Shown in pieces: positions 3,105 to 32,826 of a stretch of 35,933 nt of DNA. The first letter of the stretch is position 1. Each line of letters begins with the position of its first letter. The notes under the pieces were generated by a model. That model made no database searches. It was not told where the DNA came from and worked only from the letters and a program-made list of their open reading frames with translations. The position numbers and the translations under genes are program-made. The stretch is from an archaeon (GTDB taxonomy: Archaea > Nanobdellota > Nanobdellia > WJKC01), in contig WJKC01000005.1 in the NCBI GenBank assembly GCA_014729335.1, positions 1-35,933 on the forward strand. The letters are read 5' to 3'.

Positions 3105-3964
3105 ATTACGGGGAGTTCAGTTACAAGTTATTCCACGATTTTTCAAAAAAGTACTCTTATTTATTCAAGGATATTCAAGAGGACCTGTTAGAATCAAACA
3201 TTAAATACTCTGTTCAGGAGTACTTCGCTTCAATGGTGATGACCCTGATAATATCAACACCACTGATAGCTGTTTTCACAATAGGTTTATTCATATTAGT
3301 TAGTGACTTATTAATCTCAATAATAGGCGCCTTAATCTTCTATTCACTGGTTGCAGCAGGCATCATAGCCTTATTCTACTTATACCCATCCCAGCAGGCA
3401 TCTAGTATTGAGAAGCGGATTGAGAACGCGCTTCACTTCGCGGTTATTTATATGGAAACGCTCGCCGGCACCGGAGCGCCGCCACACTTATTATTCAGGA
3501 TTCTGGGCTCGTTTGAGGAGTTCAGCGAGATTTCAAAAATCTCCCGCAAGATAAGCAGGGATATTGAGATATTCGGTATGGACCCTGCTGAGGCTATCAG
3601 CAAGGCAGCTGAGAAGACGCCTTCACCTAACATGAAAGAACTGTTATGGGGTATGAAGGCCACCATCACTTCAGGCGGCGACTTAAAATTATACCTTAGT
3701 GAGAAGGCAAGGGCTTTTGCAAATGATTACAGGCGGAAACTAGAGGAGTTCACCCAGATATTAGCGGTCCTATTAGAGATTTACATCACCATAGTTATTG
3801 TTGGAAGCGTATTAATATTAGTGCTGACAACCATTATGAGCTTATTAAGCGGGGGGATAGCAGGGCTTGCAGAACTGCAGTTAGTACTTGTGACTATAGG
3901 CTTGCCATTCATGTCAGTAATCTTCATATTATTAATTAAGTCATCAAGCCCGTCAGAGGTGTAG
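3101..3964 (+). CDS. Pilus platform membrane protein 1 (single T2SSF/TadB-TadC/FlaJ-like domain)
   Basis: Polytopic protein with a central soluble helical segment (ALHFAVIYMETLAGTGAPPHLLFRILGS...SPNMKELLWGMKATITSGGDL) flanked by TM helices, as in T2SSF domains. Its ATG overlaps the ATPase stop (ATGA). Confidence 0.7.
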   Translation: MNYGEFSYKLFHDFSKKYSYLFKDIQEDLLESNIKYSVQEYFASMVMTLIISTPLIAVFTIGLFILVSDLLISIIGALIFYSLVAAGIIALFYLYPSQQASSIEKRIENALHFAVIYMETLAGTGAPPHLLFRILGSFEEFSEISKISRKISRDIEIFGMDPAEAISKAAEKTPSPNMKELLWGMKATITSGGDLKLYLSEKARAFANDYRRKLEEFTQILAVLLEIYITIVIVGSVLILVLTTIMSLLSGGIAGLAELQLVLVTIGLPFMSVIFILLIKSSSPSEV

Positions 3965-3973
3965 TATGGAATT

Positions 3974-5092
3974 ATGAATAAGCGAGAGAAATTAATCTTA
4001 TTAGCAAGTGTTATCTCAGCCCTGGTGTTATTCATAGGGGGGATGTTCTTCTCAAGCTTTGATCCTCTAATCCTAGGATACCTGGGTATTATCAGCTTAA
4101 TGATAGTAATCTTTCCCTACTCACTAACCGTTTACCTGGCTGTTAGGAAGGCTAAGACAATGGAGAACTTCTTCCCAAGGTTCCTGATGGACGTTGCTGA
4201 GAGCAAGAGAGCGGGCATGACTATCCCTAAAGGAATAGAGTTAAGCGCTGAGACTGATTACGGACCGCTCACCCCTCATATTAAACAAGTAAGGAATCAG
4301 TTATCATGGGGGGTTCCTTTCCCAGAAACAATTAAACTATTATCTGAAAGAATAACACATAGTTCTTATATTAAGCGGGGGCTGGCCATCTTACTAGAAG
4401 CTTATTACTCCGGCGGCAAAGTAGCTGATACAATGGAGGCGGTTGCTGAGAGCACAAGGGTTCTTAAAGAAGTGGAGAAGGAGCGTGAGTCAATGCTTCA
4501 GCAGCAGTTAATAATCGTGTACTTAATTCACTTCATATTCGTGGGAATCCTGGTAGCTCTTTATAGAATACTTATTCCATTACTAACCTTTCAAGGAGGA
4601 GGCGGTTCAACACTAGTCACTGCTTTTGGCGGAGGCGAGGCTCCGCCGCTTAACTTTTATAAACTATTATTCTTCCTGACCATGACCATTCAGTCATTAA
4701 GCAACGGAATAGTGGCGGGTGTTACTAAGGAGGGGAGTATATCAAGCGGCACCAAGCACGCTGGTGTAATGATTACTATCTCATTATTTGTCTATACCGC
4801 TTTTATCTTCCCCCAGATGTTCACGATTAACGCTATCAGCTCTAAAGGGGAGTTAACAACTAATGAGCCAATAGAGTTTTACGGCAGCTTGACATTGGAG
4901 AATGAGCCGTTAAGCGGTGTTGAGGTAGAGGTTGATTTTGGAGGCAAGAGCGCTTCCGGAGTAACTGATGAGTACGGCGACTTTAATATCAAGATGCGTT
5001 CACCAACTGTTCCCGGCTCATATAACGTAGTACTGGAGGCTGAGTATGAGGGTCTTACAACCACGCAAACCCTTCTTGTCAACGTTAAGTAA
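3974..5092 (+). CDS. Pilus platform membrane protein 2 (T2SSF/TadC/FlaJ-like) with a C-terminal beta-sandwich-like extension
   Basis: T2SSF-like segment FPRFLMDVAESKRAGMTIPKGIELSAETDYGPLTPHIKQVRNQLSWGVPFPETIKLLSERI lies between TM helices. The C-terminal ~80 aa (LSGVEVEVDFGGKSASGVTDEYGDFNIKMRSPTVPGSYNVVLEAEYEG) resembles carboxypeptidase-regulatory/Ig-like folds. Confidence 0.7.
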   Translation: MNKREKLILLASVISALVLFIGGMFFSSFDPLILGYLGIISLMIVIFPYSLTVYLAVRKAKTMENFFPRFLMDVAESKRAGMTIPKGIELSAETDYGPLTPHIKQVRNQLSWGVPFPETIKLLSERITHSSYIKRGLAILLEAYYSGGKVADTMEAVAESTRVLKEVEKERESMLQQQLIIVYLIHFIFVGILVALYRILIPLLTFQGGGGSTLVTAFGGGEAPPLNFYKLLFFLTMTIQSLSNGIVAGVTKEGSISSGTKHAGVMITISLFVYTAFIFPQMFTINAISSKGELTTNEPIEFYGSLTLENEPLSGVEVEVDFGGKSASGVTDEYGDFNIKMRSPTVPGSYNVVLEAEYEGLTTTQTLLVNVK

Positions 5093-20455: not shown

Positions 20456-20521
20456 AAAACTCCAAAAGGTCTTCACCCCAAAATCGAGGCTGGGAGCGAC
20501 TGAACCCCGTAAATAAAAAAG

Positions 20522-20530
20522 CATTTAAAG
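20522..20530 (+). promoter_or_regulatory. TATA box for tRNA-Asn (catttaaag)
   Basis: Centred about 29 nt upstream of tRNA position +1. Confidence 0.4.
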
Positions 20531-20554
20531 TGAATTCCAATTATTCTATTCATT

Positions 20555-20627
20555 GCCTCGATAGCTCAGTAGGTAGAGCACATGGCTGTTAACCATGTGG
20601 TCGCAGGTTCGAGTCCTGCTCGAGGCG
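20555..20627 (+). tRNA. tRNA-Asn (anticodon GTT), no intron, no encoded CCA
   Basis: Hand-folded cloverleaf. Acceptor gcctcga/tcgaggc plus discriminator g. D stem gctc/gagc. Anticodon stem catgg/ccatg with loop ctGTTaa. T stem gcagg/cctgc with loop ttcgagt. Confidence 0.9.
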
Positions 20628-29014: not shown

Positions 29015-29030
29015 AAAGAAATGCTTAAAA
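29015..29030 (+). promoter_or_regulatory. Shared tRNA promoter motif aaagaaatgcttaaaa (tRNA-Ile locus)
   Basis: Identical 16-mer to 30799-30814 upstream of tRNA-Glu and contains a TATA-like cttaaaa. It ends 28 nt before the pseudo 5' end gagcctg at 29058, not before the real tRNA 5' end. Confidence 0.5.
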
Positions 29031-29056
29031 GATGATTCATACTTTGAAACTCTTAT

Positions 29057-29086
29057 TGAGCCTGGCAGCGTAAAGCAAAAGGCTCA
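29057..29086 (+). repeat. Acceptor-stem-mimicking leader of tRNA-Ile (copies of both acceptor strands around a 16-nt loop)
   Basis: tgagcctg (29057-29064) repeats the tRNA 5' end tgagcctg (29092-29099). aggctca (29080-29086) repeats the 3' acceptor strand plus discriminator (29183-29189). gagcct/aggctc can form a 6-bp helix. Confidence 0.8.
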
Positions 29087-29092
29087 TGAAAT

Positions 29093-29189
29093 GAGCCTGT
29101 AGCTCAGCTTGGTTAGAGCGCTGGTCTTATATGACCGTGTTCCAATCTAGGGAAACCAGAGGTCCCGAGTTCAAATCTCGGCAGGCTCA
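29093..29189 (+). tRNA. tRNA-Ile (anticodon TAT) with a 22-nt intron at the canonical 37/38 position, no encoded CCA
   Basis: Acceptor gagcctg/caggctc plus a. D stem gctc/gagc. Anticodon stem ctggt (29121-29125)/accag (29155-29159). Loop is c-t-TAT-a-[intron 29132-29153 tgaccgtgttccaatctaggga]-a. T stem ccgag/ctcgg with loop ttcaaat. Confidence 0.8.
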
Positions 29190-29215
29190 TAAAGAAAGGA
29201 TTGAGCTTGCTGATT

Positions 29216-29246
29216 TAACACTTTAGTGTTATTATCGGCAGGCTTA
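29216..29246 (+). repeat. tRNA-Ile trailer module: hairpin plus a copy of the tRNA 3' end
   Basis: Hairpin taacac-ttta-gtgtta (29216-29231), then tta, then tcggcaggct (29235-29244). This is identical to tRNA positions 29178-29187 (T-stem 3' strand plus acceptor 3' strand). Extended to the discriminator, 11 of 12 nt match. Confidence 0.8.
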
Positions 29247-30798: not shown

Positions 30799-30814
30799 AA
30801 AGAAATGCTTAAAA
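30799..30814 (+). promoter_or_regulatory. Shared tRNA promoter motif aaagaaatgcttaaaa (tRNA-Glu locus)
   Basis: Identical 16-mer to 29015-29030. It ends 29 nt before tRNA-Glu position +1. Confidence 0.5.
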
Positions 30815-30842
30815 AGGGAAGTAAGTTTTTATTCCAATAATT

Positions 30843-30917
30843 GCTCCTGTAGTCTAGCCTGGTCAAGGACACTGGCCTTTCAAGCCAGTAACCCGGGTTC
30901 AAATCCCGGCAGGAGCA
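30843..30917 (+). tRNA. tRNA-Glu (anticodon TTC), no intron, no encoded CCA
   Basis: Acceptor gctcctg/caggagc plus a. D stem gtct/ggac. Anticodon stem ctggc/gccag with loop ctTTCaa. 4-nt variable loop. T stem ccggg/cccgg with loop ttcaaat. Confidence 0.9.
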
Positions 30918-30948
30918 GCTTACATTCACTTCACTGGTTGCGACTGAC

Positions 30949-30988
30949 GGTTCAAAAATCAATAGATTTTTGTTACCGGCAGGAGCAG
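30949..30988 (+). repeat. tRNA-Glu trailer module: GGTTCA-hairpin-TGTTA plus a 13-nt copy of the tRNA 3' end
   Basis: ggtt + hairpin caaaaatc-aata-gatttttg (30953-30972) + tta + ccggcaggagcag (30976-30988). The last block is identical to 30906-30918 (T-stem 3' strand, acceptor 3' strand, discriminator, +1). Confidence 0.85.
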
Positions 30989-31162
30989 ACCCTCTTTCTT
31001 TTAGAAAAAGAAAAAGTCTTCTAAGCCAAAAAGAAAACCACTACGCTCGAAATATACACCCAAACTGCAAAATGACGACTCTACACGCAGTGTAGTTGTC
31101 AGCAGGAGTAAAGCGAGCCAGTGGCATTAAGTTTTTAAAGCAGCCTATTAATTAAGAGATTA

Positions 31163-31831: not shown

Positions 31832-32028
31832 CCCTAATGTTTAAAAAGGAGGCGTAACTTTGTTCTCAATATGCGATTAGAATACCTGGGTGGGAACCCC
31901 TAAAAAGAAGCACAGCAGCAGGAAGTGGAAAAAGAAACACTCCTGTCGCCACAGCACTAAAAAGAACAGAATGAAGAAACGTAAGAGAAAGCGCAAGCTC
32001 AAAAAAGGATAAAAGATAAAACTTACTT

Positions 32029-32688: not shown

Positions 32689-32774
32689 GTAGGGATGACG
32701 GAGTCTGGTCAAACGTGCTGGGTTAAGGACCCAGTGGCTTAGTGCCTACGGGGGTTCGAATCCCTCTCCCTACA
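32689..32774 (+). tRNA. Type II tRNA-Leu with genomically encoded anticodon AAG, no intron, no encoded CCA
   Basis: Acceptor gtaggga/tccctac plus a. 3-bp D stem acg/cgt with a 13-nt loop (gagtctggtcaaa). Anticodon stem ctggg/cccag with 7-nt loop t-t-AAG-g-a (anticodon at 32725-32727). 15-nt variable arm tggcttagtgcctac. T stem ggggg/ccctc with loop ttcgaat. Confidence 0.75.
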
Positions 32775-32787
32775 ATAATTAAGGAGA

Positions 32788-32826
32788 GGTTCAGAAATGC
32801 CTGATTTCTGTTAATCTCTCCCTACA
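32788..32826 (+). repeat. tRNA-Leu trailer module: GGTTCA-hairpin-TGTTA plus an 11-nt copy of the tRNA 3' end
   Basis: ggtt + hairpin cagaaat-gcctg-atttctg (32792-32810) + ttaat + ctctccctaca (32816-32826). The last block is identical to 32764-32774 (T-stem 3' strand, acceptor 3' strand, discriminator). Confidence 0.85.

Follow-up and report, generated by a model that had tools for sequence, protein, structure and literature searches.

What places an exact second copy of the end of a transfer RNA (tRNA) gene behind a small hairpin, beyond the gene itself? The question arises at tRNA-Leu(AAG) of the archaeal contig WJKC01000005.1, which was analysed over its whole length of 35,933 bp, read on the + strand, and which we call the window. 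A reading made from the letters alone (the sequence-only reading) had noted this arrangement at tRNA-Leu and a similar one at tRNA-Glu. ARAGORN and Rfam place four tRNA genes in the window, every one on the + strand. At the Rfam gathering threshold these four tRNAs were the only matches in the window, with no family for the modules that follow them:

20555-20627, + strand: tRNA-Asn (ARAGORN, Rfam)
29093-29189, + strand: tRNA-Ile(UAU), with an intron (ARAGORN, Rfam)
30843-30917, + strand: tRNA-Glu(UUC) (ARAGORN, Rfam)
32689-32774, + strand: tRNA-Leu(AAG) (ARAGORN; Rfam tRNA, 52.8 bits)

Three of the four genes carry a module, in which a hairpin of 40-60 bases is followed by an exact second copy of the last 10-13 bases of the tRNA. 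The order of parts is T1 - x - T' - apex hairpin - T2, where T1 is the tRNA 3' end, T2 an exact copy of it, and T' an inverted copy. T', just 5' of the hairpin, reverse-complements 6-12 nt at the start of the repeated sequence T, and T', apex and T2 together make a single long stem-loop of 16-20 bp with a small U or UU internal loop. At tRNAs, T2 begins at about positions 61-64, in the T-stem, reaches the discriminator and at times continues into the flank. The parts of the modules, with two further arrangements nearby, are as follows:

32764-32774, + strand: Leu T1, CTCTCCCTACA, the final 11 nt of tRNA-Leu, with the discriminator as the last base
32775-32815, + strand: Leu spacer of 41 nt, with x = ATAATTAA, then T', then a hairpin that we term type A
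32783-32789, + strand: Leu T', GGAGAGG, inverted copy of the start of T
32788-32815, + strand: Leu type-A hairpin, GGTT-CAGAAAT-gcctg-ATTTCTG-TTAAT, inner stem 32792-32798/32804-32810
32816-32826, + strand: Leu T2, exact copy of CTCTCCCTACA, 52 nt downstream of T1
30906-30918, + strand: Glu T1, CCGGCAGGAGCAG, 13 nt, overshooting the discriminator by 1 nt
30919-30975, + strand: Glu spacer of 57 nt, the scaffold CACTGGTTGCGACTGACGG including T', then a type-A hairpin
30939-30950, + strand: Glu T', TGCGACTGACGG, 9/12 complementary to T
30949-30975, + strand: Glu type-A hairpin, GGTT-CAAAAATC-aata-GATTTTTG-TTA, in full GGTTCAAAAATCAATAGATTTTTGTTA
30976-30988, + strand: Glu T2, exact copy of CCGGCAGGAGCAG at 30906-30918
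29178-29187, + strand: Ile T1, TCGGCAGGCT, 10 nt
29190-29246, + strand: Ile module, consisting of T', TT, hairpin, TTA and T2
29204-29213, + strand: Ile T', AGCTTGCTGA, forming 10/10 bp with T2, including two U.G pairs on the sense strand
29216-29231, + strand: Ile hairpin, TAACAC-ttta-GTGTTA, with an apex unlike the Leu/Glu type
29235-29244, + strand: Ile T2, TCGGCAGGCT, exact copy of T1 across a spacer of 47 nt
31082-31110, + strand: hairpin CTACAC-gca-GTGTAG, then a third, degenerate Glu 3' end, cagcaggagta, at 31100-31110
29057-29098, + strand: weak mirror arrangement in the tRNA-Ile 5' leader, with a copy of the tRNA 5' end, TGAGCCTG, at 29057-29064
29080-29098, + strand: tRNA-Ile leader segment AGGCTCAT, pairing with the tRNA 5' end via a GAA loop

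The duplicated Leu tail behind a hairpin and ttaat, as the sequence-only reading had described it, was present in every feature. Weaker similarity extends the Leu repeat out to 32834, giving 19 nt at 89% identity, that is, 8 nt beyond the discriminator. The degenerate Glu copy at 31100-31110 is 9/11 identical to CGGCAGGAGCA, stands directly ahead of the promoter-like GCATTAAGTTTTTAAAG of the next gene, and occupies the position at which a relative, L071, carries its last T copy (loci in other genomes are given by our own L numbers). A further hairpin, TTTCTTTT-aga-AAAAGAAA, lies in the tRNA-Glu trailer at 30995-31013.

Of 4000 random control positions, about 0.5% had a flank that shared a direct repeat of 11 nt or more with the 160 nt before it, and repeats of the lengths seen at the window tRNAs occurred at about 0.5-2%. 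Set against these rates, repeats of 10-13 nt at three of four tRNAs exclude chance. The sequence-only reading had placed the tRNA-specific sequence behind the hairpin; the second copy does match its own tRNA, but the inverted copy ahead of the hairpin is tRNA-specific as well.

The arms of the Leu and Glu hairpins are identical at 20 of 22 positions, both differences falling in one pair that is A-T in one hairpin and G-C in the other. The pattern GGTTCARAAAT-N3-7-ATTTYTGTTA matched just these two sites in the window, where 0 matches were expected (100 shuffles). The two trailers are homologous modules, as had been proposed. A version with the variable pair left free, GGTTCANAAAT-N3-8-ATTTNTGTTA, was scanned against one genome per GTDB species (185,579 genomes) and against JGI metagenomes, and returned 69 and 96 loci respectively. 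Most of the matches (about 130) were chance occurrences in unrelated bacteria. The non-chance copies all lay in DPANN contigs; the loci sharing the hairpin are metagenome-assembled genomes of Candidatus Woesearchaeota, and the syntenic relatives of the window are assigned to Candidatus Nanoarchaeia archaeon. By these neighbours the window belongs to a DPANN archaeon of Nanoarchaeia/Woesearchaeota type. The copies outside the window were:

L024: type-A hairpin at tRNA-Arg
L044, L123/L155, L039 and L095: type-A hairpin at one tRNA-Leu family
L063: type-A hairpin at a Leu/Ser-type tRNA
L053/L099: type-A hairpin next to a protein-gene start
L167: type-A hairpin in an intergenic position, without clear T or T'

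At every tRNA-associated copy, and at L053, T' and T match their own locus. The L167 hairpin is identical at 27/27 positions and lies between two ORFs of an unrelated, very AT-rich contig. Two type-A copies occur in the 36-kb window and 10 in the loci examined, 8 of them at tRNA ends.

A covariance model was built on ten hairpin copies. In the window it matched the Leu module at 32781-32823 (40.4 bits) and the Glu module at 30942-30984 (55.8 bits) and nothing beyond these two, the Ile module not being recovered. Among the relatives it picked up modules with divergent apexes (L044-M2, L044-M3 and L063-M3), in L123 and L039 mirror modules at the 5' ends of tRNAs, and, within a tRNA insertion, a hairpin. 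The real T-arm of one tRNA was aligned too, since GG-TTCA...(T)AT-C looks like a T-arm whose loop is enlarged.

The module is therefore real and recurrent, and stands preferentially at tRNA 3' ends in Nanoarchaeia and Woesearchaeota genomes. The scan of related archaea that the sequence-only reading had suggested found the same module at other tRNAs in several such contigs, and the copies in L024, L044, L123, L039, L095 and L063 show that it is not confined to the window. That the repeats are chance similarity or an assembly artefact is hardly credible. Logan contigs of two relatives do break in the T-loop of tRNA-Leu, and tRNA regions are hard to assemble, but the same architecture appears in more than 10 independent assemblies (NCBI, JGI, ENA, Logan), each with locus-specific sequences, which effectively rules out the artefact that had been named as a danger to the claim. 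Chance is opposed by strong statistics against shuffles, against the 4000 random positions and in the pairing of the variable position (11/11 against 49/128).

This pairing was followed in all copies. Position 7, the variable one of the arm, pairs in all 9 copies outside the window and in the 2 window copies, as A-T in 6, G-C in 4 (window Leu being counted here) and G-T in 1; among chance matches to the same pattern it could pair in 49/128 (38%). In an alignment of 20 non-redundant rows it is A-T in 14, G-C in 5, G-T in 1 and mismatched in 0; columns of the outer helix show up to four pair types, and pairing in this helix reaches 78%, where shuffles gave 59% (maximum 69%), counts that lean towards structure because the rows were fitted to the covariance model. 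The search for further covariation thus met with success, in the form of compensatory changes in both apex and outer helix. The A-T to G-C covariation of the sequence-only reading is real, but the hairpin is also a DNA palindrome, and correction of one arm by the other can keep the arms complementary and gives the same signal. Paired changes alone therefore do not show an RNA function.

T' has a Watson-Crick base opposite T at three positions where the tRNA stems have G.U pairs. It is therefore a complement of T and no copy of the tRNA 5' strand, and the idea of an internally deleted tRNA gene, with T' as the 5' acceptor strand, was ruled out on this ground. T2 remains identical to T1 in the modules. 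Three other candidates were rejected. The spacer as a decayed copy of the whole tRNA 3' half found no significant alignment to the cognate tRNA bodies, the GGTTCA T-loop-like motif alone standing out (p = 0.01-0.09 in three cases). A rule by which the A or G of arm position 7 copies the T-loop purine of the cognate tRNA held in 4/6 cases only. Finally, no box C, K-turn or ACA geometry of a C/D-box or H/ACA guide was seen.

Syntenic relatives, reached via the PHP and methyltransferase genes, differ in the presence and number of modules at the same tRNAs:

tRNA-Glu: no module in L074, L186 and L181; one in L072; two in L071 and L183; one in the window, plus the degenerate third copy
tRNA-Leu(AAG): no module in L072, L074 and L186; present in the window, L181 and L183
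tRNA-Ile: module in the window alone; none in the relatives seen

In a survey of 24 tRNAs, the 3' end recurred downstream over at least 9 nt in 9 of them, the repeats of the relatives measuring 9-16 nt. Several tRNAs bear arrays, with two modules at L024, three at L044, three at L063 and two at L071, and with three T copies at L183. The L024 array holds three copies of CCCCCAGGTTCG, that of L044 four copies of (G)CCCGCA, and that of L063 four copies of CCTTCCCTCGCA. The Leu module of L181 has the hairpin type of the window, with T' and T2 tracking the tRNA of L181 itself (GCAAGAAGG...CCTTCCCTG). Modules at several tRNAs and in several genomes, the arrays and the differences in presence agree with the proposal that the module is actively or recurrently generated, and the comparison that had been advised, made here between syntenic relatives, did show loci with and without the module.

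The last Glu module is orthologous in four lineages (window, L071, L072 and L183), which share the T' scaffold TTGCGACTG..GG. The scaffold, mismatches included, has been kept across lineages with about 60% protein identity, on which the apex differs from one lineage to the next:

Scaffold: GTTGCGACTGACGG in the window and L071 (19/19 nt identical); GTTTGCGACTGCAGGGG in L183; GTTGCTAACTGCAGGGG in L072
Apex: type A in the window; AAGAAC/GTTCTT in L071; CTAAACT/AGTTTAG in L072; CTGGAAC/GTTCCAG in L183

Two compensatory pair changes separate the apexes of L072 and L183. The apex hairpin is, to judge by these sequences, exchangeable on a conserved scaffold. In the same neighbourhood, the Logan contigs of L070 (end 2275) and L071 (end 1801), close relatives with 92% and 76% PHP identity from sample SRR10018917, both stop at the same base in the tRNA-Leu T-loop (..GGGGGTTCGAA). 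The shared break could reflect heterogeneity of the population downstream, such as a module that is present or absent.

The modules are not limited to exact tRNA 3' ends. Across modules the duplicated target measures 9-24 bp. At the tRNA-Leu of L183 the repeat is 23-24 nt long, 19 nt of it flank and only 5 nt tRNA, and the 14-nt L039 repeat, CCGCA|GCTTTTCAT, extends past the tRNA end. Mirror modules upstream of tRNAs in L123 and L039 run from a copy of the 5' end through an inverted hairpin to the complement. At a small ORF of L053/L099 the module layout, with a 19-nt repeat, surrounds the start codon and its ribosome-binding site. An exact inversion of the hairpin between T' and T is seen in L039 and L095, the product expected of recombination between these inverted repeats. 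Flank-extending repeats, 5' mirrors, the protein-gene case, the inversion and L167 are together hard to reconcile with an origin through a role in the tRNA transcript. The duplication was described at first as one of the tRNA 3' end; it is not bound to the mature end, but runs 9-19 nt into the flank in L039, L183 and window Leu, and also takes in 5' ends and a protein-gene start.

We give an even chance to the reading that the modules arise at the DNA level, by insertion and duplication of hairpin DNA at gene ends, and are then kept as a structured, probably co-transcribed trailer. Some 40-60 bp of hairpin DNA would be inserted at a gene boundary together with a target duplication of 9-24 bp, the apex being drawn from a small number of dispersed palindrome families, of which the GGTT-CARAAAT..ATTTYTG-TTA hairpin of Leu and Glu would be one. 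Recombination or slippage between T copies would later lengthen or shorten arrays and exchange their apexes, and the hairpin would flip by recombination between T' and T. The functional tRNA would be left intact, with an oligo-T terminator after the last T copy, and the trailer would be removed by tRNase Z. Pairing in the stem might be kept by selection on an RNA or single-stranded DNA hairpin, or by palindrome correction.

A hairpin of the type-A family also occurs inside a tRNA. In L044 (- strand, about 3960-4030) and L123 (about 3480-3540) the D-loop of a tRNA-Leu has an insertion with the hairpin AACAAAAATGG-gaa-CCATTTTTGAAG, between direct repeats of 5 nt whose sequence (CAAAC in L044, CAATC in L123) changes together with the exon, and L095 has an uninterrupted homologue of this tRNA. 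Non-canonical insertions or introns of tRNAs may, to judge from this, be seeded by the same elements. At L039 380-580 (+ strand) an insert of about 200 nt, rich in hairpins, separates the end of tRNA-Leu from the next 17-nt copy. Bounded by the 14-nt repeat CCGCAGCTTTTCAT and free of ORFs, it comprises several perfect stem-loops and is the largest 'module' seen.

Tyrosine-integrase elements, among them archaeal ones of the pNOB8/SNJ2 type and bacterial genomic islands, leave attL/attR repeats in tRNA 3' ends. On this model the modules would be scars of site-specific integration, the tRNA 3' ends serving as attB for viruses or plasmids and T1 and T2 being the attL and attR cores. T' and the hairpin would be the conserved attP-proximal end of an element of which the rest was lost, or the integrating unit would be a minicircle. 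As is typical of att cores, the direct repeat is identical to the 3' part of the tRNA from the T-stem onwards and sometimes passes the gene end. Arrays of partial 3' ends at one tRNA look like tandem remnants, strains differ in presence and absence, the same hairpin adjoins different tRNA-specific cores, and the GGTTCA..(T)AT-C flanks mimic a T-arm closely enough for the covariance model to align a real one. We nevertheless regard integration scars as unlikely. The copies lie mostly 37-61 nt apart, a range too tight for random deletion remnants, and the gap is filled by T' and a conserved hairpin. No integrase or cargo stands between or near the copies, a domain search of the ORFs over the 35,933 bp having found no integrase, transposase or viral gene. 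Scans of IMG/VR with the hairpin pattern and two scaffolds gave unpaired chance matches or nothing, and no viral or plasmid attP counterpart, DPANN mobile elements being perhaps poorly represented there. Mirror modules at tRNA 5' ends, the case at a protein-gene start and the inverted T' would all be unexpected. The sequence-only reading had thought it unlikely that two integrated elements decayed independently into one and the same remnant of about 45 nt, and we dismiss such decay of large elements too.

Predicted RNA folds of the modules are stable (z of -4.2 to -7.5 against shuffles):

Leu module: sense -19.1 kcal/mol, z -4.5; antisense -17.0
Glu module: sense -22.2 kcal/mol, z -4.2; antisense -19.1
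Ile module: sense -23.8 kcal/mol, z -7.5; antisense -13.4

The predicted outer helix of the Leu module runs into T2. The sense strand gave the more stable fold in 13 of 17 modules (mean difference 2.4 kcal/mol), including all three of the window, and aligned stems hold 14 G.T cells against 7 A.C cells. T-rich runs follow the last T copy and not T1 (T8 in L123, T6 in L183, T5 in L063); within the hairpins, Glu has TTTTT in its 3' arm, Leu TTTCT, and Ile no oligo-T. A terminator-like T run in that place puts the modules probably inside the tRNA transcription unit, where they probably form a structured 3' trailer of the same transcript. Maintenance of the stem-loop after its origin is suggested by the conserved scaffolds, by the compensatory changes and by the mild G.U bias of the sense strand, in modules that are not all independent of each other.

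These observations also speak for a module that is primarily a functional RNA, a structured pre-tRNA 3' trailer whose identity with the tRNA is kept by selection. Its possible roles would be to terminate transcription or insulate from the promoter that follows, to control 3' processing (tRNase Z, CCA addition), to protect against exonucleases, or to act as a decoy for factors that bind acceptor stems. The folds, the sense-strand bias, the T runs (with the U5 run of the Glu hairpin), the compensatory apex changes, and a T2 equal to T1 beside a T' scaffold kept with the same mismatches in four lineages would all fit. The 3' strand of the hairpin is moreover an acceptor/T-stem strand ending at the discriminator, at a transcript end, as in tRNA minihelices and in t-elements or mascRNA signals. 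We consider such a primary function rather doubtful, because the same tRNAs in close relatives lack modules, which are hence not essential, and because module number and apex type vary. The hairpin is inverted in L039 and L095, turning the U-rich internal loop into an A-rich one; the layout recurs at 5' ends and beside a protein gene; and Rfam has no family for the modules of the window and 11 related loci. In contrast to the 12-bp acceptor/T minihelix, the helix measures 16-20 bp and is interrupted by an internal loop, and its apex is a variable tetra- or pentaloop and no T-loop. A trailer with a function is compatible with insertion at the DNA level, and the two are not exclusive.

Splicing offers another account, in which a bulge-helix-bulge (BHB) intron close to the 3' end consists of T1 and the spacer, or T2 serves as an alternative 3' exon, so that T1 is joined to T2. 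Non-canonical insertions abound in the tRNAs of these lineages, the D-loop insertion of L044 and L123, with its 5-nt direct repeat, holds a hairpin of the type-A family, and the mature sequence would be identical with either T copy. In Thermoproteales, too, BHB intron families recur in different tRNA genes ('intron transposition'), much as near-identical short hairpins here stand in different tRNA genes of one genome, one member lying in a tRNA insertion. The modules, however, are not part of the mature tRNA; long direct repeats that continue past the tRNA end flank them, and they lack BHB geometry, their unpaired bases facing each other in a 1x2 or 0x2 internal loop with no stagger by a 4-bp helix. 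The uninterrupted gene is a complete, high-scoring tRNA, and a scan found no motif joining T1 and T2, although the same scan also missed presumed true introns. We judge an intron to be very improbable.

Returning to insertion and duplication of hairpin DNA, we find that several points weigh against it. No enzyme or autonomous element could be linked to the modules in the sequence around the loci examined, and the length of the duplication varies over 9-24 bp, unlike that left by classical transposases. No standard insertion mechanism explains T', and among the young-looking modules at least that at the tRNA-Leu of L183 has no T'. Dispersal was judged from a few tens of kilobases per genome. 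The Glu scaffold, persisting across lineages of about 60% identity, and the sense-strand bias fit a selected RNA function equally well or better. In addition, perfect CAAAAA(N)..(N)TTTTTG hairpins are very frequent in L044, L095, L039 and L123, reaching about one in 1.5 kb; some of them stand at gene starts, and some of those in L044 are conserved in L095. These A5/T5 hairpins may be bidirectional oligo-T terminators or a wider palindromic family that includes the type-A hairpin, and with hairpins of this kind so common some of the 'dispersed copies' may be unrelated terminators.

Known families of small repeats share only part of the layout. Like REP/REPIN sequences, PATEs and MITEs (miniature inverted-repeat transposable elements), the modules are short intergenic hairpins scattered across loci and genomes in either orientation, and their arms show concerted evolution. 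They differ in their long and variable target duplication, in a stem that extends into locus-specific sequence, in a strong preference for tRNA ends, and in that no RAYT or transposase partner was seen in the sequence examined. Measured against MITEs, the hairpin arms are inverted repeats, but the spacer ends have no terminal inverted repeats and the duplication has no fixed length. Clusters of integron attC sites alone (CALINs) are reported in Archaea; these likewise comprise imperfect palindromes of about 45-60 nt with two helices and a small unpaired spacer, conserved more in structure than in sequence, in arrays of variable content beside a fixed site. Unlike attC sites, the modules lack R''/R' boxes (RYYYAAC/GTTRRRY), cassette ORFs and IntI, and their outer helix is the target's own sequence. 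The direct - inverted - direct order over a few to about 20 nt recalls templated (snap-back or loop-out) insertions of microhomology-mediated end joining and DUP-INV-DUP template switches, but random repair scars would not be expected to share a conserved apex hairpin or to fall at tRNA ends time after time. The sequence-only reading knew of no described element with this layout; literature searches, though narrow, found none either, and the layout is apparently undescribed.

We hold it distinctly unlikely that the modules are the work of an undescribed mobile or self-copying hairpin system that writes direct and inverted copies of gene ends, or alternatively that they are tRNA-acceptor decoy minihelices with a cellular or antiviral role. 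In a self-copying system T' might be a guide that matches the target or a product of snap-back synthesis, tRNA ends would be preferred, and the elements would seed tRNA insertions and introns in DPANN archaea.

The finding goes beyond the two modules first reported, to a third tRNA of the window (Ile) and to related genomes. If a dedicated mechanism makes the modules, very small archaeal genomes would have a new way to remodel their tRNA loci, and, the same hairpin family having been found outside such genes, at their two ends and within one of them, this would bear on the old question why interrupted, split or fragment-flanked tRNA genes are so common in archaea. Should the modules be functional trailers, they would form a lineage-specific layer of tRNA 3'-end biology. 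In practice, the duplicated ends confuse the calling of tRNA boundaries and the assembly of reads, and could pass for prophage att sites.

By domain search, the protein genes of the window are core archaeal genes only:

Replication and translation: RFC large and small subunits, MCM, aIF2-beta, RIO kinase, KH protein
Secretion and membrane: pilus/secretion ATPase, membrane proteins
Topoisomerase: topoisomerase VI A and B
Metabolism: glycosyltransferases, methyltransferases, UbiA prenyltransferase, hexapeptide transferase, PHP phosphoesterase

In the 11 related loci Rfam reported just tRNAs and one signal recognition particle (SRP) RNA; the latter is an archaeal SRP RNA gene at L095 1142-1415 (RF01857, 124 bits), unconnected to modules. 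Motifs resembling a promoter (B recognition element/TATA-like), AAATGCTTAAAA or AAGCATTTAAAG, stand about 25-60 nt upstream of window tRNA genes (29020-29031, 30803-30815 and 20520-20532), and a related motif, TTTTTAAAG, lies at 31125-31140 ahead of a protein gene. Between the hexapeptide-transferase and PHP genes, the stretch 31890-32012 (+ strand) has about 85-95% identity in L070 and L071, far above that of the flanking genes. It encodes an extremely basic ORF of 40 amino acids, MGTPKKKHSSRKWKKKHSCRHSTKKNRMKKRKRKRKLKKG, which is probably an unannotated small, ribosomal-like protein.

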